Sequence record: MH706966
DNA length: 54,655 bases
Direction: 5' to 3' (one strand)
Origin: Enterobacteria phage mEp021
Part shown: positions 2,419-20,423 of the stretch, one piece after another
How positions within the stretch are numbered: position 1 is the stretch's first letter
How the letters are laid out: every line of letters starts with the position of its first letter
Program-made: the position numbers and the translations under genes
The notes under the pieces: model-generated
What the model was told of the DNA's origin: nothing
Database searches by the model: none
What the model saw: only the letters and a program-made list of their open reading frames with translations

Positions 2419-2849
2419 TATTGCCCCCAGCGTTTTATAAATTCCTCGTTCAACTTAGTGTCACCAGACCATTGAACATTATGTTCAGCGCCGAACGAGT
2501 AGATCAGTTCGATTAGTTCGCTAAATTCTGCTTTACTCATCCGGCTGGTTGACGTACCCAGCACAACAAAACCTGATTTATCCAGGTTAGGGACAACGCC
2601 ATATTTCTTAAGTCCGGCAGTAAATACCGCCTTCCAGTCTTCCGGCGACAGCTTTTTTCCGTACCAATTAACCTGATCGCTAATGTCGGTTAACAGCGCC
2701 CATAAAAGGCTATTTTGACTAAGCGAGCGGGTTTTCTCCTGGATGGTAATTATCAGCGGGCTTTTGCTATCAGACTGGATCTCTCTTATCTGCCTGATAG
2801 CGTTTTCTTTTACGGCGTCGTTTACTATTTCAAATCTAATTTGCCTCAT
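2418..2849 (-). CDS. ninB: NinB/Orf-family recombination mediator
   Basis: 143 aa. Collinear with my recollection of lambda NinB: ...ITIQEKTRSLSQN..LWA...VVPNL...GFVVLGTSTSRM...EF.ELIELI..FG....V.WS. Confidence 0.8.
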   Translation of the reverse strand: MRQIRFEIVNDAVKENAIRQIREIQSDSKSPLIITIQEKTRSLSQNSLLWALLTDISDQVNWYGKKLSPEDWKAVFTAGLKKYGVVPNLDKSGFVVLGTSTSRMSKAEFSELIELIYSFGAEHNVQWSGDTKLNEEFIKRWGQ

Positions 2850-3573
2850 GGTTAGATAACGCCTCGTTTATTCTATTTGATGCAATTTCGAAATATTTTT
2901 CATCCTTTTCTATGCCGATAAAACGTCGGTTAGTATTAATGCAGGCAACGCCTGTAGTTCCGCTGCCCATAGTAAAATCGAGAACCGTTTCCCCTTCGTT
3001 AGTGTATGTCTTAATTAGGTATTCCATCAGTGCGACAGGCTTTTGTGTTGGGTGTACCTTGCCTTTCTGGTTTGCGTTACTTATCTCTATAATGCTTTTA
3101 GGGTGCTTATCCTTATAAGTCCTTAAATCACCATAATTAATTATGCGGTTTGCCTCCCCAGCAGAATATGTTTTACCCGTCCTTTCCTTTTGCGGAGTTT
3201 TTATTGGGTAATATTTGACAGCGCCTTTAGAAAAAACAACAACATCCTCATGCACCCTATAAGGTTGCCATTTGAGGACTTGCATGTTACCGCCTTTCTT
3301 CTTGTCCCATACCCAGCAATATTTAAACATGCTTATGTTGCTTGCAATTAGTGTTGTAGTGAACGGCTGACTTGCAGTCATCACAATGGCGCAATTCGGC
3401 TTAACTATGCGCTTTAATTGCTCCCACATTGGATTAAGAGGAATGACGGAATCCCATTTGCAGGCCGTTGTGCCGTAAGGCGGATCAGCCATTACCATAT
3501 CAACGCTACCGCCTGGGATAGAGTTCATGACCTCCAGACAATCACCCAACAATAATGTAACATCTTTATTCAT
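2836..3573 (-). CDS. DNA methyltransferase (N6-adenine/N4-cytosine class, DPPY motif)
   Basis: 245 aa with the catalytic motif VMADPPYGT and an HPTQKP motif, followed by a C-terminal SAM-binding FTMGSGTTG. Confidence 0.85.
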   Translation of the reverse strand: MNKDVTLLLGDCLEVMNSIPGGSVDMVMADPPYGTTACKWDSVIPLNPMWEQLKRIVKPNCAIVMTASQPFTTTLIASNISMFKYCWVWDKKKGGNMQVLKWQPYRVHEDVVVFSKGAVKYYPIKTPQKERTGKTYSAGEANRIINYGDLRTYKDKHPKSIIEISNANQKGKVHPTQKPVALMEYLIKTYTNEGETVLDFTMGSGTTGVACINTNRRFIGIEKDEKYFEIASNRINEALSNHEAN

Positions 3574-3582
3574 TATGTTGCC

Positions 3583-3780
3583 TCATGATACACCGTTACT
3601 ATTTTTCCACTGTGACCGCGCATACATGATCGCCCACAGAGAAATAAGCCTTGAGCTAGACATATAATCGTTTTTGAGTTTTTTCATATCAATAATAACA
3701 GGACTATCAGGATCGTCACCTCGCATGTATTCCGCAATCGTGCTCAAGTCTTCCACGGTCAAATCTAATTCCCTATTCAT
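3583..3780 (-). CDS. Hypothetical protein (65 aa)
   Basis: ORF packed in the minus-strand operon. Confidence 0.45.
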   Translation of the reverse strand: MNRELDLTVEDLSTIAEYMRGDDPDSPVIIDMKKLKNDYMSSSRLISLWAIMYARSQWKNSNGVS

Positions 3781-3789
3781 GGTCGCCCC

Positions 3790-3996
3790 TTACACAATCC
3801 GCATTGTGTTTCGTAATTCACCGCGCAACGCCTGCAAAGCGTAATGAATCGGCACAAAAGCACGGTTAAATTTTACGTGCTTATACTTGCGCATTAGTGG
3901 CGGCGTATAAACCATCGTGCCGCAAGGATCGCATGTGAATTTAAAGTGAGATTCGTCAATAAACGTTTCAACTGAATAAAAAATTACCCGTCTCAT
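3790..3996 (-). CDS. Hypothetical protein (68 aa)
   Basis: ORF packed in the operon. Overlaps the upstream gene by 4 nt. Confidence 0.45.
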   Translation of the reverse strand: MRRVIFYSVETFIDESHFKFTCDPCGTMVYTPPLMRKYKHVKFNRAFVPIHYALQALRGELRNTMRIV

Positions 3997-4586
3997 AATT
4001 CCAACCCCGTTTCCACGTTGAGTTTTTCAATCTCAAATACTGGTTTATCAGGAAGCAGCCCGTTATTTTTACGGTATTCGTTCAGGCGGCTGTCAAAGTC
4101 AAACGCCAAATCATTAGCGTGACCGAATCGCCCAGGTTTAAACAGTGAGTAAAAGTTAACCCCGTGCCTATTTGGATCAACGCAAAGCGTTTCATCAATC
4201 ACCATTAGGCGAAGAGTACGAGAAAGATAATTCCACGGGATACCAGTCTCCGCACTAATGTCACGCATACGCTTTTTAACGCTGTAGTCACCAAATAACG
4301 ACGCAACACGCTCACGACGTTCAGCATATAACTGTTTAATACGATAGCCCAGCAGACGGCGGCGGCGTCCAAAACATGTATATACGCGCTCGACGATACC
4401 GTTTTTTATTAAGTGTTTAATTGTCTCAGGAAGTAACCCATCTTTATCATATCCAGCTAATAACCCCGTTTTATTGCGCAACTGGTGCATTGTTGCGATG
4501 CCATCAAGTTCAAGGATATTGATAACTTTTGTTTCAAGTTCAGCGCTCATTGTTTTTAGCCTCGTTTTAAACGCGATAACAGCCAC
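3993..4586 (-). CDS. Hypothetical protein, possible winged-helix DNA binder (197 aa; alternative start 4550)
   Basis: Long ORF immediately downstream of the helicase. Basic, with an HTH-like segment IATMHQLRNKTGLL. Confidence 0.5.
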   Translation of the reverse strand: MAVIAFKTRLKTMSAELETKVINILELDGIATMHQLRNKTGLLAGYDKDGLLPETIKHLIKNGIVERVYTCFGRRRRLLGYRIKQLYAERRERVASLFGDYSVKKRMRDISAETGIPWNYLSRTLRLMVIDETLCVDPNRHGVNFYSLFKPGRFGHANDLAFDFDSRLNEYRKNNGLLPDKPVFEIEKLNVETGLEL

Positions 4587-4629
4587 CAGAAAGCGGTAAA
4601 CTTTCCGGTAAGCCGTTTGCTCATATTGA

Positions 4630-6045: not shown

Positions 6046-6079
6046 TATGTTATTACCTCCGGTTTACAAAATGGAAAAT

Positions 6080-6586
6080 TCAGGGTAAAGAAATACCGTG
6101 ATTGCTATGAAAGTTATACATTCTTTCAGCTTCTTTTCTTGCTTTTACGGCATCATCAAATGAGTCACCGTAATAAACGTACATTGTTTTCTTTTTCCCA
6201 TCAGACCCCCTTATACCTATTTGCGCCCGCCATTTATGGGTTTTCTTGTTCCACGTAACGCCAACGCATCCGCTAGTATTACTTGATGGCATTGTTTTGT
6301 TTCTGTTATTCTCCTTCCTTGTCACTATCCTTAAGTTTTCGATTCTATCGTCACCAGGTACATGATTTATGTGATCTATTTCCATTCCATCAGGAATAGG
6401 GCCGTTAAACATTTCCCAGATAATGCGGTGACGCCATGTGCAACAAATACCATTAACGCGTATAGTCCAATATCCGCGATAATGTTTACATCCAGCCACG
6501 CTACCTGCTTTTATTTTGTTATTTGCACGGTTACAAGACCAATATAGAACGCCGTCGCTATATGTAAATAAATCATCCCACATCAT
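6080..6586 (-). CDS. HNH homing endonuclease with AP2-type DNA-binding domain
   Basis: HNH_3-like EIDHINHVPGDDRIENLRIVTRKENNRN followed by the AP2-like SGCVGVTWNKKTHKWRAQI. The start was moved to the ATGATG at 6586/6583 so that only 14 nt overlap the upstream gene. Confidence 0.8.
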   Translation of the reverse strand: MMWDDLFTYSDGVLYWSCNRANNKIKAGSVAGCKHYRGYWTIRVNGICCTWRHRIIWEMFNGPIPDGMEIDHINHVPGDDRIENLRIVTRKENNRNKTMPSSNTSGCVGVTWNKKTHKWRAQIGIRGSDGKKKTMYVYYGDSFDDAVKARKEAERMYNFHSNHGISLP

Positions 6587-7703: not shown

Positions 7704-7736
7704 AATGTTACTTCCTCATGTTTACGTTTTGTATAT

Positions 7737-9224: not shown

Positions 9225-9365
9225 CGTTTCAACTCCTTAAAACGCCTCAGACACTCTACAACGCAAAAACACACCGCGTAATCCACTTGTAATGGTGCAG
9301 TGTCTTTTTTGCGCCAGAATCGCAATCAGGTGGCTAATTTTTTGATTTACAGACTGGTATGAAGG

Positions 9366-9467
9366 TTATGGATTTACTAGAAGGAACAAGCCGCCGAACA
9401 AAGCGACGTTAACAGCGATTGCAGCGGCGATGGCAAAAGCCAGGGCGAAAACGTGTTTACCGTCCAT
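9366..9467 (-). CDS. Possible 33-aa hydrophobic peptide MDGKHVFALAFAIAAAIAVNVALFGGLFLLVNP
   Basis: Not in the track. GAGAGGA sits 7 nt upstream of the ATG, and the peptide has a single predicted TM helix. It lies in an otherwise empty 375-nt gap. Confidence 0.3.
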   Translation of the reverse strand: MDGKHVFALAFAIAAAIAVNVALFGGLFLLVNP

Positions 9468-9600
9468 TTTAAAATCCTCTCTAAAACGCTCTCTAACGAG
9501 CTAAACCGCTAAAGGTATGCAAGTGTAGCACCCAATGCTTTTTAGCTCGCTTATGGGCTTGTTTTGTTGGTAATTTTTGATTTTTGCGTATTGTGGTTGG

Positions 9601-10608
9601 TCAAATAGCGCCTGCGCGTGTATCGCGTAGCGTTTTTGGTTTAAGCAGGAAATCAAGTGTCGCAGTGAAGCCATTGCCGAAGTAAAAGTCTGAAGCCGTG
9701 TTTTTAAACGCCTCAAAGTAAGCAATAAAGCCAGTGATGCTTTTGTCTTTCAGGTAGTCAGTGAACGCATAGATCTTGCGTTCAAGATCCCGATCCAGTT
9801 CAGCAGGTGGCAACAGGCCATCAAACGTGCTGTTAAATGCTTCCACTACGTCGGCAGCGTTTGCAGTGACTGACAGTTTGCTCCATTGTTCAGCATCAGC
9901 CAGATACCCATCGAATTTAGTTACCCGGCAAATGTTAACAGGCTTAGGCACTCCACCACGGCCACGCCATTGCGTTAAAGCCCACTCAATCACTAATGTG
10001 ATCTCACCCTCCGTATACGCTTTGCGTGTTTTTGTTTCTGTCAGTAGTTCTACGAATGGCTTTGCATCACGACATTTGCATCCTGCCTTGTCGTTGTAGA
10101 AGGACAGGCAACGCAATGCCGCCAGATTAACCTCCCGATCTTCTTCGCTGATAGACTCGTCTTTTTCCAATACACGAAGTGTATTGTTTTTAATGTTCTC
10201 TTTACTGGTTATATATGACTGATTAGGGTTGCTCTCTGCCACTACCCCCGGTTGCTTTGTGCCACTACCCTGGTTGCTCTCTGCCACTACCCCCGGTTGC
10301 TTTGTGCCACTACCTGACAGTGAAGGTAAAACGATTACATAGAAATTGCTCGTTTGTTCTTTCCCTCCTATTAAATATCGAGGCTGTTTTAGTAATAAAC
10401 CTTTTTTGCAAAGAGCCTCGATTGCTCTCATTGCCGTACTTTTGTTTATTTCGCATTGCTTTGCTATGTGCTGGTAAGAAGGGTAGCACTCTCCGTTATC
10501 GTTAGCGTTATCAGCCAACTTTAACAGCACAAGTTTGTGCATTGGGTTGCCGACTTCAGTATGAAAGACTTCAACCATTAGCCGCATACTCATAAGCATT
10601 AACCTCAT
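9601..10608 (-). CDS. Replication initiator, lambda O-like (N-terminal winged HTH; start codon ambiguous, 10608-10578)
   Basis: The N-terminus KLVLLKLADNANDNGECYPSYQHIAKQCEINKSTAMRAIEALCKKGLL is typical of phage O/HTH_36 initiators. The gene contains iterons (peptide repeat SGSGTKQPGVVAESN twice), as lambda O does. Confidence 0.8.
   Translation of the reverse strand: MRLMLMSMRLMVEVFHTEVGNPMHKLVLLKLADNANDNGECYPSYQHIAKQCEINKSTAMRAIEALCKKGLLLKQPRYLIGGKEQTSNFYVIVLPSLSGSGTKQPGVVAESNQGSGTKQPGVVAESNPNQSYITSKENIKNNTLRVLEKDESISEEDREVNLAALRCLSFYNDKAGCKCRDAKPFVELLTETKTRKAYTEGEITLVIEWALTQWRGRGGVPKPVNICRVTKFDGYLADAEQWSKLSVTANAADVVEAFNSTFDGLLPPAELDRDLERKIYAFTDYLKDKSITGFIAYFEAFKNTASDFYFGNGFTATLDFLLKPKTLRDTRAGAI
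10168..10316 (-). repeat. Candidate origin of replication: four 22-23-bp iterons, an AT-rich stretch and a palindrome, inside the O-like gene
   Basis: Iterons GGTTGCT(C/T)T(CT/-)GTGCCACTACCC at 10228, 10250, 10272 and 10295. AT-rich segment at 10187-10227. Perfect palindrome CAATACAC-GAA-GTGTATTG at 10168-10186. Confidence 0.7.
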
Positions 10609-10614
10609 GACGAA

Positions 10615-10860
10615 CTAAAACATTAACTGATAAACACAGAAGAAGCCTGGAAGCTGGCTAATCAGGCCGCTTCTTTTCAGTTGATGCAGTGCAGAGATAG
10701 TGTCACGTAACGAAATTTCGCACATTTCCGCGATCTCTTCCGGAGTTACTTCGCTTTTGCCGTTGCATCCGGCCTTTGTTGCCAGTGCAATTAAGATAAG
10801 TTTTTGCACATGATCATTGTTATTCAGGCGAATATCAAAAGCCTTGCGAACGTAATACAT
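10615..10860 (-). CDS. Small winged-HTH protein, first gene of the minus-strand early operon (Cro/CII position)
   Basis: 81 aa with a strong RBS (AGGAGAAAGAAACATG). KLILIALATKAGCNGKSEVTPEEIAEMCEISLRDTISALHQLKRSGLI resembles the N-terminal domain of the O-like protein. Confidence 0.6.
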   Translation of the reverse strand: MYYVRKAFDIRLNNNDHVQKLILIALATKAGCNGKSEVTPEEIAEMCEISLRDTISALHQLKRSGLISQLPGFFCVYQLMF

Positions 10861-10968
10861 GTTTCTTTCTCCTATGGTTAGAGTGAACGCGCGGGCGGGT
10901 ATCCAATTAGCATTAGATAGCAGTGACTGACCGCTGAACAGATCCCGCCGTTGCGTGATATTTGTTTT

Positions 10969-11001
10969 TCGCTTCGCAGCGACACCGGATTTTTAAAGAG
11001 C
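10969..11001 (-). promoter_or_regulatory. nutR-like site (boxA AGCTCTTTAAAAA, 7-nt spacer, boxB hairpin UCGCUGCGAAGCGA)
   Basis: Read on the minus strand in the leader of the early operon. The boxA matches the rrn boxA TGCTCTTTAACAA at 11/13. The 17-mer GCTCTTTAAAAATCCGG is identical to 20172-20188. Confidence 0.4.
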
Positions 11002-11013
11002 TTTTAAGGTATG

Positions 11014-11129
11014 TACCTTTTGTGCTTTCCCTTATCTTTTTTCTTGCATCATTGCAACTATGGCCTTACCTTGTCAGCAAGTTTACAGAATGGAGCTTTA
11101 AGATCAAGGCTTGAAAAATACGTTTTGTG
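11014..11129. promoter_or_regulatory. Immunity-region operator cluster (three copies of the YACAAAAYGK word) between divergent early promoters
   Basis: TACCTTTTGTG at 11014-11024, TACAGAATGG at 11084-11093 and TACGTTTTGTG at 11119-11129, in the 306-nt gap between the cI-like gene and the divergent operon. Confidence 0.4.
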
Positions 11130-11166
11130 ACTTGCATCAAAATTTTTTAGGTTATAGGGTAGCGAT

Positions 11167-11814
11167 ATGAAAACAAAATGGTATGACTTAGCAAAACAAC
11201 TCATGCGGGCGCAGGGCATGAGCCAGGATTCATTGGCTGATCTTATGGGGATCACAAAAGGCGGCCTTTCTCACTGGCTGAACGGTAGACGTGAGCCAAA
11301 TCTTGAAGATATTGCGCGTATCATGCGGGCGCTTGGGCGTCGGCAGTTCACTGTCACACATGATGGAATGGTCATTGATGATTCTGTTTCTAACACGTTG
11401 CCGGGAGCGCCGCCGCGTGATTTAGGTAGTTACCCGGTTGTTGACTGGAAGGATGTAGTAAACAATATGGAAGATGCAAGGCGATCAACATTACCACACG
11501 TTACGACTAGCGTTATTTGTTCAGATGATAGTTATTGGCTGGTAGCTAAAGGCGAATCAATGAACGCGCCGCAAGGATTGAGTATACCAGCGGGGACGAT
11601 GATACTTGTCGATCCGCACGCGCCAGCTATTGACGGCAAACTGGTTATAGCCCAATTGGAGGAGGGGCAGGTACCGACGTTTAAACAGTTGATTATTGAT
11701 GGAGGTCAAAGACTTTTGCGTTCGCTCAATCCGCTGTATCCGCCAATCCCTATGAATCCAGAATCAAAAATTATAGGCGTGGTGGTTGATGCGAAGATCG
11801 TAAACCTGCCATAA
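11167..11814 (+). CDS. cI: CI-type prophage repressor (XRE HTH + S24/LexA-like autopeptidase)
   Basis: 215 aa. N-terminal HTH MSQDSLADLMGITKGGLSHWLNGRR and a C-terminal S24 domain with AKGESM...K. Divergent from the early operon. Confidence 0.9.
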   Translation: MKTKWYDLAKQLMRAQGMSQDSLADLMGITKGGLSHWLNGRREPNLEDIARIMRALGRRQFTVTHDGMVIDDSVSNTLPGAPPRDLGSYPVVDWKDVVNNMEDARRSTLPHVTTSVICSDDSYWLVAKGESMNAPQGLSIPAGTMILVDPHAPAIDGKLVIAQLEEGQVPTFKQLIIDGGQRLLRSLNPLYPPIPMNPESKIIGVVVDAKIVNLP

Positions 11815-11820
11815 ACATTA

Positions 11821-11844
11821 GCCGCCGGATGGCGGCTTTTCTTT
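11821..11844 (+). terminator. Rho-independent terminator after cI
   Basis: GCCGCC-GGAT-GGCGGC followed by TTTTCTTT. Confidence 0.7.
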
Positions 11845-11924
11845 GCCGTAAAAACACCAAAACGTAAACAGAAAACATGTTTTATCATTTAAATATCAAT
11901 GAGATAGAAAATTTTTTAAAAAAG

Positions 11925-11966
11925 TATACAAAATGGATTGACTCTGTATATCACGGGGCGTATATT
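11925..11966 (+). promoter_or_regulatory. pL-like promoter (TTGACT-17-TATATT) with an abutting TATACAAAATGGA word
   Basis: -35 at 11938-11943 and -10 at 11961-11966. The motif at 11925-11937 is directly upstream. The spacer contains ATATCACG, which also occurs in the other early leader. Confidence 0.5.
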
Positions 11967-12223
11967 GCGAATCAAAGGAAGGAGGCAGGAAACAAAAAAG
12001 CACCTTCCAGGCACTTTAAAAAATCAGGCTTAACACCTTGTCAACCGTGGAGTAACTCCCCGATGGGGGACCGAAAGCGGCACTGATAACAAGGCGCATG
12101 GGGTGTTTAAAGCGTTACACCCCCCACGAAACCGCACGCAAGGCGACGAGTCAGCTTGCTTGGAGTGAGCAAGGTCACACCGGAAACGGCGATGATTGCG
12201 GGATTAGTTGAAAGATGTTAAGC

Positions 12224-12261
12224 CGCTCATTAACAATCTGGTCAGCCGCTGGAAGTGCGGC
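12224..12261 (+). promoter_or_regulatory. nutL-like site (boxA CGCTCATTAACAA, 8-nt spacer, boxB GCCGCUGGAAGUGCGGC)
   Basis: boxA matches the rrn boxA at 11/13. boxB is a 5-bp GC stem with a GGAAG loop flanked by U.U. It lies 57 nt upstream of the N-like gene. Confidence 0.5.
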
Positions 12262-12317
12262 AATTAACGAAGATGATTTTTTATTAAGTATCATCAAGGA
12301 TATAAGGAGATCAGATC

Positions 12318-12608
12318 ATGACAGTTACAATCATGTATGGCAAATGTGACAGTAAACTGAATGCCAGGGAACGCAGAAGAATAAAAAGAGAAAACGAAAG
12401 AAAATCATCACCTGCAATTAATAAAACGGACAATGTGGATAAAGCCATTCGCTTTGCAAACGAGGAAAGATGCAAACCCAATGGCATTAAAGAACGTCGC
12501 AAAGGAGCGGTAAAATGGTATACGGAAAATGAAAGCGGCAACTACTACCACGCAACGCAACCACGCCAGTTAGGGGAAAAACCCCTTGATAAAGTCCGCT
12601 ACCATTAA
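12318..12608 (+). CDS. N: N-like transcription antiterminator (arginine-rich motif protein)
   Basis: 96 aa with the RBS AAGGAG. The N-terminal ARM SKLNARERRRIKRENERK resembles the lambda, P22 and phi21 N ARMs. It is the first gene after the pL-like promoter and the nut-like site. Confidence 0.55.
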   Translation: MTVTIMYGKCDSKLNARERRRIKRENERKSSPAINKTDNVDKAIRFANEERCKPNGIKERRKGAVKWYTENESGNYYHATQPRQLGEKPLDKVRYH

Positions 12609-12638
12609 TACAAAATGTAAATAATCGGAGGTGACATT

Positions 12639-12761
12639 ATGGTTATCGAGGCGCTCAAATTCAAACTTGCGGTAGCGGAAATGCTTCATGATGCCGAAAT
12701 GTGGAGCGCCGCGAATAAAGCCTTATACGTAGTGTTAACAGCGAAGGAGATCAAAGAGTGA
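12639..12761 (+). CDS. Hypothetical small protein (40 aa)
   Basis: Not in the track. RBS GGAGGTGACATTATG. Its stop overlaps the GTG start of the erf-like gene. Confidence 0.4.
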   Translation: MVIEALKFKLAVAEMLHDAEMWSAANKALYVVLTAKEIKE

Positions 12762-13399
12762 AAACAGAGTTACACAAAAAGCTGTGGACGATTCAACAAA
12801 CGTTGAATGCGCCGAAAAATCAGCGTAATAATTTCGGTGGGTACAATTACAGGTCGGCGGAGGATATTTTAGAGGCGGTTAAGCCACTGCTTCAAAATAT
12901 CACGCTGACTGTTAGCGATGAAATCGTCCTGATCGGCAATCGCTATTATGTGAAGGCCACAGCTACGCTAAGCGACGGTGAAGATGAAATTGCGGTAACT
13001 GCTTACGCCAGGGAAGAAGAAAGCAAGAAGGGAATGGACGCAAGCCAGTTAACTGGCGCGACATCAAGTTATGCGCGGAAATACGCGTTGAACGGATTGT
13101 TCTGTATTGATGATGCGCGAGATCCTGATACTGACGCATACGCGAAGCAGACTGGCCAGCAGCCTCGCCAGCAGAAAAACACACCAAAACAACAACCACA
13201 GCAGCAGAAAGCGCCGCCAAATCCTGACGAGGTGTTAGCGCGTTTCTGTGATGCAGCAGCGAAAGCGCCTGACGCTAACAAGTTGCGCGAGATATTCGGG
13301 AAGTGCTGGAAGCTACTTCCTAAAGATTCAGAACAGCAACAGAAAGCTAAAGACGTTTATGATATTCGCTTAAAAGAGCTTAACGGGGAGATCGGTTAA
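12758..13399 (+). CDS. erf: ERF-family single-strand annealing (recombination) protein
   Basis: 213 aa. ...NFGGYNYRSAEDILEAVKPLL...SYARKYALNGLF is typical of the ERF superfamily, with a Q/P-rich linker. Confidence 0.8.
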   Translation: MKTELHKKLWTIQQTLNAPKNQRNNFGGYNYRSAEDILEAVKPLLQNITLTVSDEIVLIGNRYYVKATATLSDGEDEIAVTAYAREEESKKGMDASQLTGATSSYARKYALNGLFCIDDARDPDTDAYAKQTGQQPRQQKNTPKQQPQQQKAPPNPDEVLARFCDAAAKAPDANKLREIFGKCWKLLPKDSEQQQKAKDVYDIRLKELNGEIG

Positions 13400-13809
13400 T
13401 GAGCTTAAATTCAATTACGCTTGGCGGTAACGTTGGGAATGATTGCGAAACGAGATTTACATCAAACGGGAAAGCAATCGGTAGTTTCTCACTTGCTGTA
13501 CAACAAGGTTACGGTGATAACAAACGTGCAATGTGGGTAACGTGTTTAATATTAGGTGATAGAGCAACAAAATTAGCCGAACATATTAGGAAGGGGGATC
13601 ACCTGGTTGTAAGTGGTCGGTTGGATGTTAGGGATTGGGAAGGGCAGGACGGAAGAAAAAACAAATCAGTTGAGGTTATCGTGTCAGATATTGAATTTAT
13701 GAGCGGAAATAAACGCAGCGACCAAAACCAAAACAGACAACGCGAACAGCAACAACAATATAACCAGGATAACGGCGGGCAGGACTGCGACCAAGATATC
13801 CCATTTTAG
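13399..13809 (+). CDS. ssb: Single-stranded DNA-binding protein
   Basis: 136 aa. OB-fold N-terminus (NSITLGGNVGNDCETRFTSNGKAIGSFSLAV), a Q/N-rich tail and the terminal acidic DQDIPF motif. Confidence 0.9.
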   Translation: MSLNSITLGGNVGNDCETRFTSNGKAIGSFSLAVQQGYGDNKRAMWVTCLILGDRATKLAEHIRKGDHLVVSGRLDVRDWEGQDGRKNKSVEVIVSDIEFMSGNKRSDQNQNRQREQQQQYNQDNGGQDCDQDIPF

Positions 13810-13838
13810 CGAATATAATCAATTAGTTAGGTGTTATT

Positions 13839-14363
13839 ATGAGTAATGCCGAACCATTGAAAATATGTTGTACTTGCGGGGCACTATTGCCCCTTTCTTG
13901 TTTTCATAACGATAAGGGCAAGAAAGACGGCAAATCATGTAGATGTAAAGAGTGCGCCAAAAAAGCCACTAGAGAATGGAGTGAAGCGAATAAAGAAAGA
14001 AAAAAGAAAAATGATAGCGAATACGCAAAAACAGATAAAGCCAAAAAGAAAAGGGAAGAATACAGAAAATCGCAAAGAGGTAAAGAGATCGCGGCTGAAT
14101 CAAGAAAAAAATGGAATGAGAAAAACCCTAAAAAATACCACGCCCAAGTGATGGCACATAACGCTATCCGCGACGGCAAATTAATTAAACAACCTTGCGA
14201 AGTATGCGGCAGAGATGACCGCGTACACGCGCACCATTGCGATTATGATAAGCCGCTCGATGTTATGTGGCTTTGCCCGATATGCCATCGAGAGTGGCAC
14301 AACGAACACGGTGAAGGAGCTAATGCACACGACGAGGTATTAAGTGGTGAGCGAATATCTTAA
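13839..14363 (+). CDS. HNH nuclease-family protein with a lysine-rich middle region
   Basis: C-terminal CEVCG...VHAHHCDYDKPLDVMWLCPICHREWH (HNH/Zn) and an N-terminal Cys cluster. Confidence 0.65.
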   Translation: MSNAEPLKICCTCGALLPLSCFHNDKGKKDGKSCRCKECAKKATREWSEANKERKKKNDSEYAKTDKAKKKREEYRKSQRGKEIAAESRKKWNEKNPKKYHAQVMAHNAIRDGKLIKQPCEVCGRDDRVHAHHCDYDKPLDVMWLCPICHREWHNEHGEGANAHDEVLSGERIS

Positions 14364-14628
14364 AGCACCGCCACCGCCACCGCGAACAAAAGAACAAGTA
14401 TTAAAAGAAGCCCGTGATCATATCGATCATGGGCTTTTTTTATGCGGAACGGCGGCGGATCGAATGGCGAAAAGATTTAGTGACCTGTACGCAAAACAAA
14501 TATGGTTCGACAACTGGCAGGCAAGTTTTTACCCACTGCAAAGAAAACCGGATATGCATTGGCCTGAATATGTCGATCCACGTATGCGCAAATATCGCGG
14601 GCGTATGGGCCAGGTTATTAACGATTAA
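14344..14628 (+). CDS. Hypothetical protein (94 aa)
   Basis: ORF packed in the plus-strand early operon. Confidence 0.45.
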   Translation: MVSEYLKAPPPPPRTKEQVLKEARDHIDHGLFLCGTAADRMAKRFSDLYAKQIWFDNWQASFYPLQRKPDMHWPEYVDPRMRKYRGRMGQVIND

Positions 14629-14642
14629 TGAGGTATTAAATC

Positions 14643-14867
14643 ATGATCGAAGATAAAGAAGTTGACGTAGAAATTCCTGACAGCGCTGATGAGCTTATCA
14701 CTTTCGGCGGCGGCCTGTATGAGTTCGATACATCGGCTGGGTGGGTTGATAAGTGGCCTCAGCCTACTCGCCAGGAATTAATTAACCGCAAATCATTCGG
14801 CGAAGATGCAGAACGCCTTGCTAATAACAAGTGGCTTAACAAGTTCATTGCGGAGGGTGATAAATGA
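14643..14867 (+). CDS. Hypothetical protein (74 aa)
   Basis: ORF packed in the operon. Confidence 0.45.
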   Translation: MIEDKEVDVEIPDSADELITFGGGLYEFDTSAGWVDKWPQPTRQELINRKSFGEDAERLANNKWLNKFIAEGDK

Positions 14868-14977
14868 ACCTTGCAAAAATTGCCGCATTGCTTGCGGCTT
14901 TGTCTATCGCTGTGCTGTATCTCAGCGTATCGCTTTATATAACGGTAGCGATCATTAAACTCATTGCTAACATGTGA
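14864..14977 (+). CDS. Small single-TM peptide (37 aa)
   Basis: Not in the track. ATGA overlap with the upstream stop. MNLAKIAALLAALSIAVLYLSVSLYITVAIIKLIANM. Confidence 0.4.
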   Translation: MNLAKIAALLAALSIAVLYLSVSLYITVAIIKLIANM

Positions 14978-14985
14978 GGTTAATC

Positions 14986-15105
14986 ATGAAAGTCGGTAAG
15001 GATATTGTGACGGTCGCGTTTTGCATTATTTGCTTCCTATTTGTGGTTGTGTTTTGTGGCGGATTTGCAGCGCTGGTTAGCTTTATTTTCAGGGGATTGT
15101 TGTGA
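14986..15105 (+). CDS. Small single-TM peptide (39 aa)
   Basis: Not in the track. RBS GAGG. MKVGKDIVTVAFCIICFLFVVVFCGGFAALVSFIFRGLL. Its stop overlaps the next start. Confidence 0.4.
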   Translation: MKVGKDIVTVAFCIICFLFVVVFCGGFAALVSFIFRGLL

Positions 15106-15377
15106 TGAAAACATGGGATGCAAAGACTGGTGATCTTGTTGTATTGCCTGAATATCGTGATGACCCTGGCCTGGTTGTACTGAATAAGATGTATAACGAT
15201 CTAGATCGCCCGCTAGTGGTTAAATACCTGGACGGAACAATCATAGAACCGCGCTACTTTGATGATATTGAACTGAAGGCCCGCAACGTTCGCGTTAAGC
15301 CGTTCCGGGCTTATGTTGAGGACCACTGGCGGAAATTGTTCGCCGGACTGAATGGGATGTACGGCGTATGGCTATAA
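15105..15377 (+). CDS. Hypothetical protein (90 aa)
   Basis: ORF in the operon. TGATG coupling to the upstream peptide. Confidence 0.5.
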   Translation: MKTWDAKTGDLVVLPEYRDDPGLVVLNKMYNDLDRPLVVKYLDGTIIEPRYFDDIELKARNVRVKPFRAYVEDHWRKLFAGLNGMYGVWL

Positions 15378-15559
15378 AGGAAGTAAAGGTCAAAGACCTG
15401 AAAGGCGGTGAGCGATTAAAGGCGTGGTGGGGTCGCGAGTTTACAGCCGCTGCCTTCATGATCATGCAGGGCGGGGAGGTCGTTATATACGATGAAGACC
15501 TGAAGGAAGTCGGCAGGTGGCATCTTGAGCAATATATCGAGGTGTTAGATGAAAATTAA
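15368..15559 (+). CDS. Hypothetical protein (63 aa)
   Basis: Overlapping, coupled ORF. Confidence 0.45.
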   Translation: MAIKEVKVKDLKGGERLKAWWGREFTAAAFMIMQGGEVVIYDEDLKEVGRWHLEQYIEVLDEN

Positions 15560-15881
15560 ATTCCATAAAGGTTATGATTCGGTCACTAACAAGTTATCGC
15601 TATTTATTGAGTTCGAGCGCCGGATCGTGGTTGTTCCTTATTCTCGGCGCTTTAATGATGCGGCAGGGCGGCGGCAATTCGCGTTAGACATGTTGTTACG
15701 TGGCTGCGGCCTTATGCGCCCGCTATCTGATTTGAAACGGATGATGCCGGGATCGTTCGGTCAGATTGATGAAATAGAAATAAGCCCGGAAGAACTGAAG
15801 CGGGAGCGTGATTTATTCCTTTCAAGCGAAGGAAACCCGTTTAATTCAGAAACAGAAATGAAATGGCATCACCCACTATAA
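15549..15881 (+). CDS. Hypothetical protein (110 aa)
   Basis: Overlapping, coupled ORF. Confidence 0.45.
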   Translation: MKIKFHKGYDSVTNKLSLFIEFERRIVVVPYSRRFNDAAGRRQFALDMLLRGCGLMRPLSDLKRMMPGSFGQIDEIEISPEELKRERDLFLSSEGNPFNSETEMKWHHPL

Positions 15882-15894
15882 AAGGATAAATATC

Positions 15895-16515
15895 ATGAAC
15901 GACATTAAAACAGCTTATTCACTAGGCAGCGATGGCATGTTAATCACTCGCTACACTGAAGACGCAAGTTTTCATGAAGTGGAAACGAAGGATTATCACG
16001 AAGTATTAAAAGATATGGAAGCTGGCGCGTATGACGCAGATTTGAATCTGGCTTTACAGATTGTTGATATTATGATGGACGCGTCGATCCGCGATTATGT
16101 GTCTTTAAACGCTGAAGAAAAAACGGCTGTGGCTCGTTATGTCTTCTGCCTAACTTTCGTGAAACGAATGGAAGAGGAATATGGGCGCGTGCCAGTGCCG
16201 GAAGAAATTGACCCGCTGGCGTTCGGAAGCGCTGTTATTTTCCCGTTAGATGAAAATCATACTGGTAGCGTTGCGCTGCATTCTATGCGCGGCGTAATGA
16301 AATGCATCTTTGAGGCTAAAGCGCTACAGAAGTGCATTGATGAAGGGCATGACGAAGAAGACGTAAAAGCGATCATGCCGTTGTTTTATGGCGAAATGGT
16401 TGGGAACAACATGCGCGCAAATGATTTAGGTGTGCAGGCTGCCATAACTGTACTTAACGAAGCGCGGAAAATGTCGCAGCCAATGCCGGAACCTGAAAAA
16501 CGTGTACTGCATTAA
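15895..16515 (+). CDS. Hypothetical protein (206 aa)
   Basis: Long ORF in the operon. No motif recognised. Confidence 0.55.
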   Translation: MNDIKTAYSLGSDGMLITRYTEDASFHEVETKDYHEVLKDMEAGAYDADLNLALQIVDIMMDASIRDYVSLNAEEKTAVARYVFCLTFVKRMEEEYGRVPVPEEIDPLAFGSAVIFPLDENHTGSVALHSMRGVMKCIFEAKALQKCIDEGHDEEDVKAIMPLFYGEMVGNNMRANDLGVQAAITVLNEARKMSQPMPEPEKRVLH

Positions 16516-16525
16516 CATCGTGATT

Positions 16526-16561
16526 GCGATCACATAAATATACATTTTGTGTTGTGATCGC
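16526..16561. promoter_or_regulatory. 36-bp palindromic element GCGATCACA-N18-TGTGATCGC enclosing a TACATTTTGTG word
   Basis: Perfect 9-bp arms, each containing GATC. Lies in the 99-nt gap between 16515 and 16615. Confidence 0.4.
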
Positions 16562-16614
16562 ATATCCGTTTTGTAAACTGAAATCAAAAGGTTTACGGCA
16601 CGGAGGAAAACAAG

Positions 16615-16833
16615 ATGGCAAGCGAATTAATGCTTTATTGTGTTGAAGGTGGCGTGGGACATGATGCCTACGTCGCCGGGAAAAGCTATCCAGCAGATGA
16701 AGTGCTTTCTAATATGCACTTCCGGGAAAATGAAAACCAGGTGTCTGTGTGGAAGCGATGCGTTGATGGCATTGAGGTAGTTAGCCTCGAAAGATATTTG
16801 GGTAAATTTGACTACGCATTGATCGAGGCTTAA
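16615..16833 (+). CDS. Hypothetical protein (72 aa)
   Basis: ORF with the RBS GGAGGAAAACAAGATG. Confidence 0.5.
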   Translation: MASELMLYCVEGGVGHDAYVAGKSYPADEVLSNMHFRENENQVSVWKRCVDGIEVVSLERYLGKFDYALIEA

Positions 16834-16835
16834 CT

Positions 16836-16928
16836 ATGGACGAAACATTGCTATTCATGTGCATTTGCTGGGGTTTTATTGCCTTATGCCTGTTTATCAG
16901 GTGGTTTATTGAATACCATATGAGGTGA
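16836..16928 (+). CDS. Small single-TM peptide (30 aa)
   Basis: Not in the track. MDETLLFMCICWGFIALCLFIRWFIEYHMR. Fills the gap between two genes. Confidence 0.3.
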   Translation: MDETLLFMCICWGFIALCLFIRWFIEYHMR

Positions 16929-16931
16929 TAT

Positions 16932-17126
16932 ATGGAACAGAAAACTGATTATAGAATACCTGACAACCTGAAGTTAGTTGGCATTGGTTTTGGTTGTCGT
17001 TTTGTATCTGACGCAAACGGGGCGATTTATTTAGTGCGCATCATTGATGGCGTTCAACATATAAGAAGGCTAGGACTTTACATCAAAGCATTTAGAAGAG
17101 GTTATTTGAAAACTCATGAAATTTAA
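16932..17126 (+). CDS. Hypothetical protein (64 aa)
   Basis: ORF with the RBS GAGGTGA. Confidence 0.45.
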   Translation: MEQKTDYRIPDNLKLVGIGFGCRFVSDANGAIYLVRIIDGVQHIRRLGLYIKAFRRGYLKTHEI

Positions 17127-17319
17127 ACAGTATAAAGAATGGAAGATTCCAGAAGAAGCGACAAAGGCAGCGCCCGGAATTTTTTCGGGCGTTTATTTTT
17201 ATATGGGCGGTAAATGGTATTTCGGCAGCAGGCCGGATCACTATTATCAAGAATTATGCAAATCTCACACATGGGACATTAATGAACGCGTGCAAGGCGG
17301 TGTAATAGACGAGGTTTAA
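17116..17319 (+). CDS. Hypothetical protein (67 aa)
   Basis: Overlapping, coupled ORF. Confidence 0.45.
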   Translation: MKFKQYKEWKIPEEATKAAPGIFSGVYFYMGGKWYFGSRPDHYYQELCKSHTWDINERVQGGVIDEV

Positions 17320-17320
17320 A

Positions 17321-17557
17321 ATGATTAATGGTTTTTTAAGCTGGTTAAGAGTGTGGTTTTTTGCCACGCTTTTCGTTTTTTTGGCGTTCAGCGGTGTCAT
17401 TGTCATATTTACGCTGGCGATGATGTTCATTACATGGTCAGTACCTGAATTTAACAATCTTGGAAGTATTTTTGCTGTCGCCCGCGCCATGTTTGCTTGT
17501 AGCGCATTTGTTGGTTTTTGTTGGAGTGTTTCGCCTGATTGGGATGATGAATGGTGA
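17321..17557 (+). CDS. Membrane protein (78 aa, 2-3 TM segments)
   Basis: Hydrophobic throughout (FFATLFVFLAFSGVIVIFTLAMMFI...). Confidence 0.5.
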   Translation: MINGFLSWLRVWFFATLFVFLAFSGVIVIFTLAMMFITWSVPEFNNLGSIFAVARAMFACSAFVGFCWSVSPDWDDEW

Positions 17558-17795
17558 TCCTATGGCCTTGTTCAATATGTCAGAACTGCAATTCAACGCC
17601 GTAAAAGCTGCCGCCCGCGCTGCACTTTCTGCTTGCAAAGCGGAGGTAGAGAAAAACGGCTACAGCGATAAAGCCACGCGGCTGATATTAGAAAAGCATT
17701 ATCGCAAGGTCGCCCCACTAATCAGCATTGAGCGCTTTGTGTGGTTGGTGGGGTATTTAAACAACCGTTGGGGGACGGAACAAGATTATTTCTAA
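17544..17795 (+). CDS. Hypothetical protein (about 83 aa; start 17544, 17547 or 17562)
   Basis: The track ORF 17460-17795 was trimmed to the first in-frame ATG near the upstream stop. Confidence 0.45.
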   Translation: MMNGDPMALFNMSELQFNAVKAAARAALSACKAEVEKNGYSDKATRLILEKHYRKVAPLISIERFVWLVGYLNNRWGTEQDYF

Positions 17796-17804
17796 GGGGG
17801 CGTA

Positions 17805-18344
17805 ATGAAAAATGATTTTGGAGGCAGCCACACTCCTAAGGAAATTAAAGATCTATGGCAGACGCCTAAACCAGTTTTCAGAGGAATGGACCGCGAATTT
17901 GAATTTGTCGCTGACGTGGCGGCAAACAAGGAAAATGCGCTAGTTCCTCGGTATATAACCGAAGAAATGGACACGTTGCATTATCCGTGGGGAGCTGTGG
18001 CAATGCCTGGTGAGTATGTCTGGCTTAATCCGCCATATTCTAAACCGGGGCCATTCGTTGAGAAGGCGGCATTAGAACATCAACGAAATCACATTGGCTG
18101 TGTAATGCTGTTGCCCGCTGACATTTCTGTTAGCTGGTTTATGAACGGCGTGGATACGGCAAACGAATGCCGATTAATCACGCGCGGGCGGCTGGCGTTT
18201 ATCAATGCTGCGACTGGTAAGCCAGTAAGCGGAAACAATAAAGGGAGCTTGTTTTTGATCTGGCATCCACGGTGCAGACATGAATGTATTTTTACACACA
18301 TAACACGTAAAGAGCTATACGCAAGAGGTGCAGATAATGACTAG
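17805..18344 (+). CDS. Phage Dam-type DNA N6-adenine methyltransferase
   Basis: 179 aa. WQTPKPVF...FVADVAA...NALVPRY and the catalytic LNPPYS are characteristic of the small phage Dam family. Confidence 0.8.
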   Translation: MKNDFGGSHTPKEIKDLWQTPKPVFRGMDREFEFVADVAANKENALVPRYITEEMDTLHYPWGAVAMPGEYVWLNPPYSKPGPFVEKAALEHQRNHIGCVMLLPADISVSWFMNGVDTANECRLITRGRLAFINAATGKPVSGNNKGSLFLIWHPRCRHECIFTHITRKELYARGADND

Positions 18345-18834
18345 TGCAGCAGATTTACTACGAATCGCAGCGGAAACAATTGAGCAAAGAGGTAAACAAA
18401 ACGGCTACGACAGAAAAGAGGAAAAATCAGCGCCAAAAATAGCCACTATATACAACGCTAAGAAGGGCGCAAATTTAACCCCACTTGATGTATGGGATCT
18501 GATGATTTGTCTTAAGGAGGCGCGTTTAGAGGCTATTTTGGTTAATGGCAGCGATCCCACTGACACTTTGGTTGACCTAATCAGCTACAGCGCACTAAAA
18601 GCTGAGCAAATATTGAATGATCTGGATGAAGAGTTAAAGAAAAATCAGTTCACTGCCGCCAATATTAATGATGGAATAATAAATGACGCAGCAATAACAA
18701 GCTGTAAGGGATTGCCGCCTTCAATGCTTAAACCTCAGTGTGGCTGTATTTCAAATCGGCTTGATTTGAGTTTTGACAGATCTGAAGCTATTCGCGACAA
18801 GAGGTATGACCCAAATGAAAAAGGTGACAATTGA
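18337..18834 (+). CDS. Conserved phage protein (165 aa)
   Basis: RBS GAGGTG. The N-terminus AADLLRIAAETIEQRGKQNGY...DVWDLMICLKEARL recurs in phage early regions as I recall. Function unknown. Confidence 0.5.
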   Translation: MTSAADLLRIAAETIEQRGKQNGYDRKEEKSAPKIATIYNAKKGANLTPLDVWDLMICLKEARLEAILVNGSDPTDTLVDLISYSALKAEQILNDLDEELKKNQFTAANINDGIINDAAITSCKGLPPSMLKPQCGCISNRLDLSFDRSEAIRDKRYDPNEKGDN

Positions 18835-19318
18835 CAGGTTATTGGCCTGCGTTTATGTCGCCGTTTTCGTGATCATCAACCTAATTGTTAACCATTGCGG
18901 CCCGTGGGTGATTCCTATCACTACGGTAGCCGCTGTGTGTGTCAATATGATGATCCGCGACTTCCTGTTATATGACGGCGGTATCAAGTGGTCGGCGACA
19001 ACATGCGCCGCCGCTGGCGCAATCACTGTGCTGATAAATTACGACGCCGGAATGGTAGCGATCGCGTCATTTGTTGCGGTTGTTTCCGGTGCACTTATTT
19101 CTGGCGGCGTTTACCGGGTTTTACCTGGTGACTTTGATTCAAAACGATGGCCTGCAAATATAGCGTCAGCAATAGGCGATGCGTTGATTTTCCCTACGCT
19201 ATCGTTTATGGCATTCATGCCGGAAATATCAGCAATGCAATTCATATCCAAAATGGCGGCGGTAACGGTGATCACTATCATCATGCGCCGCTATTTTACG
19301 TTTGAGGGTAGAAAATGA
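18815..19318 (+). CDS. Polytopic inner-membrane protein, possibly VUT/YhhQ-like (7-deazapurine precursor transporter family)
   Basis: 167 aa with 4-5 TM segments. ASFVAVVSGALISGGVYRVL...KRWPANIASAIGDALIFPTLSFMAF resembles my memory of the E. coli YhhQ C-terminal half. The family assignment is weak. Confidence 0.5.
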   Translation: MKKVTIDRLLACVYVAVFVIINLIVNHCGPWVIPITTVAAVCVNMMIRDFLLYDGGIKWSATTCAAAGAITVLINYDAGMVAIASFVAVVSGALISGGVYRVLPGDFDSKRWPANIASAIGDALIFPTLSFMAFMPEISAMQFISKMAAVTVITIIMRRYFTFEGRK

Positions 19319-20073
19319 GCAGGGGTAAACATTGGTTTAATAATTGGCTTAGAAATTGGGTCGTTTGGTCGTTGTACGACGGCAGCGGGTACGCCGTCAA
19401 AGATTGGGCGGAAGCAGGATATAAGTGCTATTGCTTCAACTATGACGGCGCAAATCACGGCGATTATGAAGGCGTTAAAATCATTCATCCAAATATTGAA
19501 TACGTTAACGTATGGATTGACAGTCACTTCCTGGTGATGTTCTCGCCTGAACTGTCAGTTTACCCAGATCCTGATATTATCCTGGGCTTCCCGCCGTGCG
19601 ACGATCTCGCCGTGTCTGGCGCTCGCTGGTTCGCTGATAAACGGAAAAAAGATCCTGACTTCCAGGTGAAGGCGGCGAATAGCGCAAAACTGGTAGAAAA
19701 ACTGGCGGATATGCACAACGTGCCGTGGATGGTGGAAAATCCGGTGGGAGCACTGTCAACGCTATGGCGCAAACCTGATTTTATTTTCAACCCTTGCGCT
19801 TACGGTGGCTACCTGCCGGAAGACGACAAACATCCTGCTTTCCCTGATGTTTACCCTGCGCGCGACGCGTATACAAAGAAAACTTGCATATGGTGCGGCA
19901 ACGGATTCAAACAGCCGCTTTTTAGACCTGTAGATCTTAACTCTGGCGATAACCCTGGGTGGGCGAAAACAGGAGGCAGGACGAAACGAACAAAGATGAT
20001 ACGCTCACTAACTCCGCGCGGCTTTGCCCGTGCTGTATTCATGGCTAACCATGACCGCGTTTTACCGGACTGA
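19315..20073 (+). CDS. Compact C5-cytosine-methyltransferase-like protein
   Basis: 252 aa. Motif I-like SLYDGSGYA, motif IV-like GFPPCDDLAVSGA, motif VI-like MVENPVG and motif X-like LTPRGFARAVF. No obvious target-recognition domain. Confidence 0.6.
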   Translation: MSRGKHWFNNWLRNWVVWSLYDGSGYAVKDWAEAGYKCYCFNYDGANHGDYEGVKIIHPNIEYVNVWIDSHFLVMFSPELSVYPDPDIILGFPPCDDLAVSGARWFADKRKKDPDFQVKAANSAKLVEKLADMHNVPWMVENPVGALSTLWRKPDFIFNPCAYGGYLPEDDKHPAFPDVYPARDAYTKKTCIWCGNGFKQPLFRPVDLNSGDNPGWAKTGGRTKRTKMIRSLTPRGFARAVFMANHDRVLPD

Positions 20074-20128
20074 AATTTACAAAATGGCGTCATTGCGTGA
20101 TGTGGATCACATAATGGCGCTATTCACC

Positions 20129-20156
20129 TTGTTCTGATGTATCCATTTTGTATACT
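20129..20156 (+). promoter_or_regulatory. Candidate promoter (TTGTTC-16-TATACT) overlapping a CCATTTTGTATA word
   Basis: Read in the 159-nt gap after 20073. It would start transcription just upstream of the third nut-like site. Confidence 0.35.
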
Positions 20157-20170
20157 TCAAACAAGCAAAA

Positions 20171-20204: not shown

Positions 20205-20232
20205 AGAAATCACCTGAAAAGGAGAGAGCATT

Positions 20233-20409: not shown

Positions 20410-20423
20410 TCGGGGTGATTTTT

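Follow-up and report, generated by a model that had tools for sequence, protein, structure and literature searches.

Three genes for DNA methyltransferases are found in the genome of Enterobacteria phage mEp021 (sequence record MH706966), a stretch of 54,655 nucleotides (nt) that is called the window below. The three open reading frames (ORFs) lie on both strands, far apart in one case and close together in the other two:

2836-3573, minus strand: ORF1, 245 amino acids (aa), a solitary beta-class DNA amino-methyltransferase, between ninB and a gene for a 65-aa protein
17805-18344, plus strand: ORF2, 179 aa, a small phage Dam-type N6-adenine methyltransferase with NPPY at residues 75-78
19315-20073, plus strand: ORF3, 252 aa, gp32 of mEp021, a compact DNMT3-like C5-methyltransferase of the phage 'Dcm-like' family

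Three solitary methyltransferase genes

An earlier reading of the same DNA, made from its letters (the original prediction), had proposed three different methyltransferases in this phage, none with a visible restriction partner, which would probably serve against restriction or in epigenetic control and be expressed from both early operons; such roles are plausible. The three ORFs are present at exactly the coordinates and on the strands that it gave, and the motifs that it quoted were found in the translations. Profile and fold evidence places the proteins in three distinct classes, namely a beta-class amino-methyltransferase, a small phage Dam and a C5-type enzyme, and the family assignments obtained in the profile searches are far above chance. 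A Shine-Dalgarno sequence precedes each of the three start codons. ORF1 runs at its 3' end into the start of ninB and ORF2 into that of the following gene, and ORF3 has a start that overlaps the stop of the preceding gene. When all stop-to-stop ORFs of at least 80 aa were scanned for motifs, no plausible fourth methyltransferase emerged, the other matches being limited to ORFs of at most 126 aa that bear a lone [DNS]PP[YFWH] tetrapeptide.

The search for partners covered 10 or 11 flanking ORFs per library, with PHROGs, Pfam, NCBIfam and PADLOC as the libraries. No restriction endonuclease or other defence component was found among the flanking ORFs of any of the three genes in these four libraries, which bears out the statement that none of the genes adjoins a restriction partner. 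The adjacent cognate endonuclease that marks a Type II restriction-modification system is thus missing in all three cases. On the ORF1 side, the neighbours that were matched are NinB/Orf, a MarR-like regulator and a DnaB-like helicase, and on the ORF2 and ORF3 side they are phrog_303, DUF6378/phrog_474, phrog_4899, NinG and RusA; the rest matched nothing. Among all these neighbours, NinG and RusA are the only nucleases, and both are recombination nucleases. Phages commonly carry solitary methyltransferases, and a 2013 review entitled 'Bacteriophage orphan DNA methyltransferases' recurs in many reference lists.

The motifs of ORF1 are DPPY (residues 30-33), TQKP (176-179) and a motif I that reads DFTMGSGTTG (199-208). 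As motif IV lies N-terminal to motif I and the central variable region lies between them, the order of the motifs is that of the beta class. The protein matches PF01555 (N6_N4_Mtase) over profile positions 1-220 of 221 (E 4.8e-36; 125.2 bits against a cutoff of 26.7), phrog_67 (E 3.6e-79) and the PADLOC Type II methyltransferase PDLC03251 (E 1.4e-79). Its closest solved relatives are CcrM, DpnA, M.RsrI and M.MboIIA (E 3e-19 to 4e-12), all of which are adenine enzymes, and with these members of PF01555 it shares the full domain, the beta-class order and the DPPY motif. It differs from CcrM and DpnA in that the matches are limited to the C-terminal part that binds S-adenosylmethionine (SAM), the central recognition region being unrelated, and it has no cognate endonuclease.

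PF01555 spans two activities, and the solved N4-cytosine enzymes 8s9m and M.PvuII are matched by ORF1 too (E 1e-9), as might be expected if ORF1 methylated cytosine at N4 rather than adenine at N6. These structures, however, rank behind the adenine enzymes, and the best NCBIfam models (CcrM and PRK11524) are adenine-specific as well, with scores far under their cutoffs. Beta-class adenine enzymes usually carry DPPY at motif IV, whereas N4-cytosine enzymes usually carry SPP(Y/F). An N4-cytosine activity is improbable on this evidence, and ORF1 is probably an N6-adenine methyltransferase.

ORF2 passes the curated thresholds of both PF05869 (E 5.5e-52; 176.3 bits against a cutoff of 28.1) and the TIGR01712 equivalog (142.9 bits against a cutoff of 97.05), and it matches the PADLOC model of an orphan methyltransferase (E 6e-26). 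It matches the mEp021 dam fragment deposited as JQ072023 with 100% identity. Its identity is about 42% to the Dam homologs of Shiga toxin (Stx) phages and 36-41% to the homologs of Drexlerviridae, and a sequence search of the PDB found no solved structure that matches it. The PF05869-type family includes M.EcoVT2Dam of Stx prophages, which has been described as an orphan Dam homolog. ORF2 is similar to M.EcoVT2Dam, T1 Dam and HP1 Dam in that it passes both thresholds, has the NPPY motif and is solitary. It is probably GATC-specific and would form G(m6A)TC; this target is extrapolated from relatives that are at most about 44% identical.

The genome in which the three genes reside can be identified with some precision. 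Over 17000-21000 it shares 99.6% identity with Escherichia phage mEp515 and 85-91% with mEp554, mEp010, mEp044, mEp013 and MagusPhagus. The final 3,174 bases of the window match the end of the mEp515 record with 99.8% identity and an identical last base, and the left-end coordinates match that record as well. Because the ends coincide, the window represents a complete phage genome, and neither host flanks nor tRNA genes were found in its 54,655 nt. The word 'prophage', as used in the original prediction, was therefore loose, since the DNA is that of a free temperate phage and not of an integrated one. These alignments identify it as mEp021 or an isolate nearly identical to it; it is a temperate coliphage of the mEpimmI group, Nus-dependent and non-lambdoid. 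The group has been described in a paper that also mentions gp32, the product of ORF3 (PMC11893012). The genome had already been published, dam is annotated in JQ072023, and each of the three methyltransferases belongs to a large known phage family. Each of the seven related phages carries both ORF2 and ORF3.

The compact C5-type enzyme

The translation of ORF3 contains GFPPCDDLAVSG at residues 91-102, in which FPPC (92-95) holds the putative catalytic Cys95, followed by ENP (141-143) with Glu141, by Lys188 and Lys189, by TPRGFA (233-238) and by a conserved C-terminal IRSLTPRGFARAV. The SAM loop is YDGSG (21-25), which is FDGSG in most relatives. Motif I, motif IV (P-C) and motif VI (E-N-V) of the C5-methyltransferases are thereby represented. 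The protein matches phrog_757, 'DNA methyltransferase' (E 8.1e-87). Its relatives form at least 7,741 clusters at 90% identity and occur in 1,517 phage records, which include Drexlerviridae-like phages, Klebsiella 49-kb siphoviruses, rV5-like myoviruses, Jersey-like Salmonella phages and others. An exhaustive profile search gave 2,112 clusters at 50% identity (E up to 1e-3), and the best 150 of the 2,112 cluster representatives are almost all 200-290 aa long and matched end to end. In an alignment of 38 diverse family members, the residues G23, S24, P94, C95, E141, N142, P143, W151, R152 and K188 are invariant, as is the block T226-K227-x-I229-R230-S231-L232-T233-x-R235, and K189 lies outside the columns that are conserved at 90%.

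Two further features of the clade deserve mention. In a few of its members (334-563 aa), extra sequence is fused to the methyltransferase module, which lies at one end or the other. The loop that follows strand beta7 (residues ~209-221) occurs in two subtypes, DNPGW(A/K)K(T/L)GG in the window and in phage KarlJaspers, and (Y/F)SxQ(H/Y)xKLGG. This loop is a candidate determinant of two different specificities.

Several sequence comparisons weigh against the assignment of ORF3 to the C5-methyltransferases. The protein has no Pfam or NCBIfam match, PF00145 being absent even at E up to 1. The alignment of the family profile with E. coli Dcm by hhalign covers 25 residues around motif IV with a probability of 1.4% and gives no help in mapping motifs VIII-X. 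Motifs IX and X (the GN-type helix of the SAM site) were sought in the C-terminal third, which holds the conserved IRSLTPRGFARAV block, and a profile of this third, searched against the PDB, matched no methyltransferase and no solved C5-methyltransferase. Searched alone against the PDB, the ORF3 sequence gave a chance match only (E 1.5), and the family profile aligned with motifs I-IV of DNMT3B at E 0.08, which is suggestive and below significance. PF00145 was matched by 18 of the 38 relatives at E up to 1, and its 22-bit gathering cutoff was exceeded by three of the 38, over profile positions 4-94 only; ORF3 itself lies below the threshold, unlike canonical C5-methyltransferases such as M.HhaI and M.HaeIII. 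The sequence link between the ORF3 family and the canonical C5 enzymes is weak, and Pfam and NCBIfam miss the family.

The predicted structure of ORF3 has the C5-methyltransferase fold. The AlphaFold2 model is confident, with a predicted local distance difference test score (pLDDT) of 90.4 and a predicted template modelling score (pTM) of 0.88, and its top fold matches in Foldseek are exclusively C5-methyltransferases, with DNMT3A/B/C first (E about 1e-6). After strand beta7 (residues 190-195) there are only ~57 residues, folded into a loop and three short helices, and the large recognition domain that bacterial C5 enzymes have between motifs VIII and IX is therefore absent. As modelled, the architecture resembles that of the DNMT3 catalytic domain, with short loops in place of the large recognition domain. 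The divergence from mammalian DNMT3A and DNMT3B is nevertheless substantial (12-19% identity, TM-scores of 0.4-0.54), and, unlike these enzymes, ORF3 has neither regulatory domains nor a DNMT3L-type partner and is ~30 residues shorter than the catalytic domain. Compared with E. coli Dcm, which is 472 aa long, ORF3 has 252 aa and lacks the large recognition domain, and no Vsr-type repair gene adjoins it. The original prediction had envisaged that profile searches might reassign this protein to a family other than the methyltransferases. The outcome was the opposite, as both the fold search and the PF00145 matches of the relatives lead to the C5-methyltransferases.

The activity of the family is known from a homolog. 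Phage KarlJaspers (Bas06, MZ501090) carries bas06_0055, a 711-bp gene annotated as 'Dcm-like C5 cytosine methyltransferase', and the protein it encodes shares 63% identity with ORF3 over 232 aa (BLASTP, E 2e-107). The genome of phage K42, which was used in a study of retron Ec86, is 95.4% identical to that of KarlJaspers and carries a nearly identical counterpart of this gene, and the study found that K42 Dcm triggers the retron (bioRxiv 10.1101/2023.08.16.553469). The escape mutants of K42 disrupt the 711-bp dcm gene, and 34 of the 35 phages sensitive to Ec86 encode it. Expression of K42 dcm raised the 5-methylcytosine (5mC) content of the multicopy single-stranded DNA (msDNA) of the retron, as measured by LC-MS (liquid chromatography coupled to mass spectrometry), and the 5mC activity was lost in the C82A/E128A/K175A/K176A mutant (bioRxiv 10.1101/2023.08.16.553469; the published version, as later papers cite it, is Cell Rep 2024;43:114857). 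The host in the K42 work was E. coli MG1655, and although this strain possesses a Dcm of its own, the control msDNA contained little 5mC. The true site or strand preference of the compact Dcm-like family may differ from the one that has been assumed.

According to the BLASTP alignment, C82, E128, K175 and K176 of the K42 and KarlJaspers enzyme correspond to C95, E141, K188 and K189 of ORF3. ORF3 is like the K42/KarlJaspers Dcm in its compact length class, in the DNPGW-type loop after beta7 and in the four tested residues, and each is a solitary early gene in a siphovirus whose host is E. coli. The two differ in a 13-residue N-terminal extension, which is specific to the mEp group, and in their setting, since ORF3 lies between nin-type genes of a temperate phage, whereas the KarlJaspers gene belongs to a virulent phage of the Drexlerviridae. 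The comparison is one of homology, activity and retron triggering having been shown for the K42 enzyme only. By this analogy ORF3 is very probably active, Cys95 would be its nucleophile and Glu141 the residue that activates the cytosine, and its product is most likely 5mC. Its target is possibly CCWGG, as was inferred for the K42 homolog. The firm placement of ORF3 in the K42-Dcm family and the mapping of the functionally tested residues are additions of the present analysis.

Of the earlier suggestion that ORF3 may be a non-canonical or an inactive member without an obvious target-recognition domain, the first part is upheld by the model and by a clade whose best-matching members are almost all 200-290 aa long. 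The second part fails, because a homolog in which the same four residues are present is active and the catalytic residues are invariant. One may still imagine ORF3 as an inactive relic or as a protein that is no methyltransferase, for instance a DNA-binding protein that has retained a Rossmann-like fold. The missing profile matches of the protein itself, the lack of a large recognition domain and a C-terminal third that sequence does not connect to solved C5-methyltransferases would all suit such a relic. On the other hand, the catalytic Cys, the Glu of ENP and the SAM loop are invariant in 38 diverse relatives, the clade is huge and uniform in length, the best fold matches are all C5-methyltransferases, and the K42 homolog is active and becomes inactive when the four residues kept in ORF3 are replaced. 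A relic is thus very unlikely.

Very unlikely, too, is the idea that ORF3 transfers a group other than methyl, in the manner of the C5-carboxymethyltransferase CmoX, using the carboxy-SAM (Cx-SAM) of the host to provide a handle for hypermodification. The product of K42 Dcm is 5mC by LC-MS. The defining trait of CmoX is its genomic association with CmoA, the Cx-SAM synthase, and/or an amide ligase, and scans of the neighbours with PHROGs, Pfam and NCBIfam gave no CmoA-like or ligase-like match. Furthermore, CmoX is a full-size enzyme (a chain of 333 residues) close to M.HhaI, whereas ORF3 is closest to DNMT3. An Arg in motif X is also found in the DNMT3 enzymes, which are true methyltransferases. 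The preferred description of ORF3 is that of a compact cytosine methyltransferase.

A single-gene cassette at the ninB junction

Both the window and mEp515 contain ORF1, the latter as a different allele. The gene is missing from five of the seven related phages (mEp554, mEp010, mEp044, mEp013 and MagusPhagus) and from each of the 35 complete E. coli genomes in which an mEp021-type prophage resides. The flanks in these 35 genomes match those of the window and span ~864 bp, compared to 1,601 bp in the window. Comparison with mEp554 shows that the insertion is clean and comprises exactly one gene. It is bracketed by a direct repeat:

2841-2850, strand not assigned: 10-bp direct repeat TTGCCTCATG, copy 1, at the ORF1/ninB junction, the right-hand copy in gene order
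3578-3587, strand not assigned: 10-bp direct repeat TTGCCTCATG, copy 2, just upstream of the ORF1 start

The cassette between the two copies of TTGCCTCATG measures 737 bp. The repeat occurs three times in the window, against a chance expectation of 0.14 copies. Its coding-strand form is CATGAGGCAA; the copy at 2841-2850 spans the start codon of ninB, and the copy at 3578-3587 spans the stop of the 65-aa gene together with the Shine-Dalgarno sequence of ORF1. In mEp554, which has no ORF1, a single copy is situated at the fused junction (about 1547-1556 of the compared stretch). The gain or loss of ORF1 looks like a cassette event mediated by the junction. Judged by these comparisons, ORF1 is a rare, exchangeable single-gene accessory cassette in the leftward early operon, and this description of the gene is also new.

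The two alleles of ORF1 share only 56% protein identity, and the similarity of their DNA is distributed unevenly. The final ~100 nt of the gene are 100% identical, the segment 3058-3405 has 30-50% identity, which makes it unalignable, and the 5' end has 61-81%. Motif IV is DPPY in ORF1 and DLPY in the mEp515 allele. The central part of a beta-class enzyme is its recognition region. As it is the central region that differs between the mEp021 and mEp515 alleles, the methylated sites are probably different, and the alleles can be described as the probable result of an exchange of the recognition region that led to different specificities. The cassette is a small, clean example of how a methyltransferase is gained and its recognition region probably exchanged at a conserved gene junction.

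Probable early expression, restriction sites and the proposed role of methylation

The genes are arranged with respect to the transcription signals of the early region as follows:

10990-11002, minus strand: boxA-like AGCTCTTTAAAAA at the nutL position, head of the leftward unit
11938-11966, plus strand: the best sigma-70-like promoter, just before the boxA-like element at the nutR1 position
12010-12022, plus strand: boxA-like GGCACTTTAAAAA at the nutR1 position, head of the rightward unit that holds ORF2 and ORF3
20171-20183, plus strand: boxA-like TGCTCTTTAAAAA at the nutR2 position, 98 nt past the ORF3 stop

The three boxA-like sequences share the pattern (A/T/G)GC(T/A)CTTTAAAAA, and their positions agree with those of nutL, nutR1 and nutR2 given for the mEpimmI phages in the paper on this group (PMC11893012). 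ORF1 lies ~7.4 kb downstream of the boxA-like element at the nutL position and on the same strand. Since the element at the nutR2 position follows ORF3, ORF2 and ORF3 are assigned to the early unit that runs rightward, where they lie upstream of ninG, rusA and a Q-like gene. Position and boxA-like elements thus agree with the earlier proposal that the methyltransferases are distributed over both early operons, ORF1 in the leftward one and ORF2 and ORF3 in the rightward one, of which the latter two are conserved genes between nutR1 and nutR2. Several terminator-like hairpins precede ORF2, an arrangement that is consistent with dependence of the early right operon on an N-like antiterminator. 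One such hairpin (17169-17193, plus strand), strong and like an intrinsic terminator, has an 11-bp stem followed by a T run and lies ~600 nt upstream of ORF2. There are 22 terminator-like sites in the region 10500-21000, and 11.3 are expected.

By combining these observations, it is possible to propose a role for the three enzymes. Gene identity, family, fold, conservation of the catalytic residues, solitary status and operon position are established by the comparisons described above. We consider it likely that in an mEp021-type genome the three solitary methyltransferases (beta-class ORF1, small Dam ORF2 and compact C5 ORF3) are expressed through antitermination and protect the phage DNA from restriction. 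After infection or induction, N-like antitermination would allow transcription to read through to ORF1, ORF2 and ORF3. The three enzymes would then methylate the replicating phage DNA more quickly and more fully than the enzymes of the host. The progeny would thus carry a fixed methylation pattern that is independent of the methylation genotype of the cell in which they were produced, and in the next host this pattern would block the cognate Type II restriction enzymes and some others. The cost of such protection might be exposure to defences that sense modification, enzymes of the ORF3 type being a known trigger of retron Ec86.

In the genome, CTGCAG occurs once, GAATTC twice and GATATC once, whereas 11-15 sites are expected, and CTAG is also scarce, with an observed to expected ratio (O/E) of 0.46. 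The near absence of 6-bp palindromes suggests that the genome is under restriction pressure, and their scarcity represents classical restriction-site avoidance alongside methylation. GATC (249 sites, O/E 1.0) and CCWGG (111 sites, O/E 0.88) are not avoided, which is the pattern expected if both were covered by methylation. As a clue to the function of the methyltransferases, avoidance of GATC and CCWGG was discarded as uninformative, neither site being avoided.

The same genes could be mainly regulatory or epigenetic in function, methylation of the DNA of phage or host tuning expression, replication or packaging of the phage or its choice between lysis and lysogeny. The Dam of phage P1, which acts at the pac sites, is the model for such a role. 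ORF2 and ORF3 are kept in seven of seven related phages although the common hosts methylate GATC and CCWGG, and a paper on a Serratia phage calls the function of phage Dam enzymes still poorly understood. The genes lie, however, among accessory nin-type early genes and away from the packaging and immunity genes, ORF1 is dispensable in most relatives, and the near absence of 6-bp palindromes speaks for a restriction pressure that is real. A mainly regulatory role seems rather unlikely in view of these points.

Protection from restriction, the reading that we prefer, has several observations to contend with, and these weigh against it. Target sequences, expression timing and the anti-restriction benefit are inferred, the targets for all three enzymes. 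That the K42 enzyme recognises CCWGG was an assumption drawn from E. coli Dcm, and its only support comes from mutants of the msDNA motif in a dcm+ host. Hosts such as E. coli K-12 have a Dam (GATC) and a Dcm (CCWGG) of their own, with which ORF2 and ORF3 would be redundant unless their specificity differs or speed matters. In the BASEL study, restriction resistance in the Drexlerviridae was not linked in any simple way to methyltransferase genes, a finding that also suits a regulatory role. A search of the literature for methylomes of the ORF3 family or of Drexlerviridae phages gave nothing beyond the work on retron Ec86.

If ORF3 is an enzyme of the K42-Dcm type, the virion DNA of the mEpimmI phages, which are temperate and prevalent in the gut, is predicted to contain 5mC, and these phages are predicted to be sensitive to retron Ec86 (Eco1). 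A more speculative extension, which we regard as doubtful, is that the Dcm-like clade has another or a relaxed specificity and that the mEpimmI phages are natural triggers of Ec86, the ORF1 cassette being, separately, a modular locus for the exchange of specificity. The specificity of the clade might be unlike that of Dcm because its members have no Dcm-type recognition domain, resemble DNMT3 and fall into two loop subtypes, and because the evidence on specificity comes from msDNA only. A different or relaxed specificity, if true, would explain why many coliphages keep the enzyme despite the Dcm of the host.

In the window, in mEp515 and in MagusPhagus, the Dam gene is separated from the Dcm-like gene by two conserved genes. 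In the window they occupy 18328-18834 and 18773-19318 and correspond to DUF6378/phrog_474, which PHROGs labels, oddly, as 'phosphofructokinase', and to phrog_4899. No link of either gene to methylation was found. The pair of a small Dam and a Dcm-like gene recurs in Drexlerviridae and in Klebsiella siphoviruses, and the phages PGN590 and K2064PH2 appear in both match lists.

The current understanding of phage methyltransferases is unchanged by this analysis, the main value of which lies in annotation hygiene. In the mEp515 record (PP180003), all three methyltransferase genes and NinB are labelled 'hypothetical protein'.

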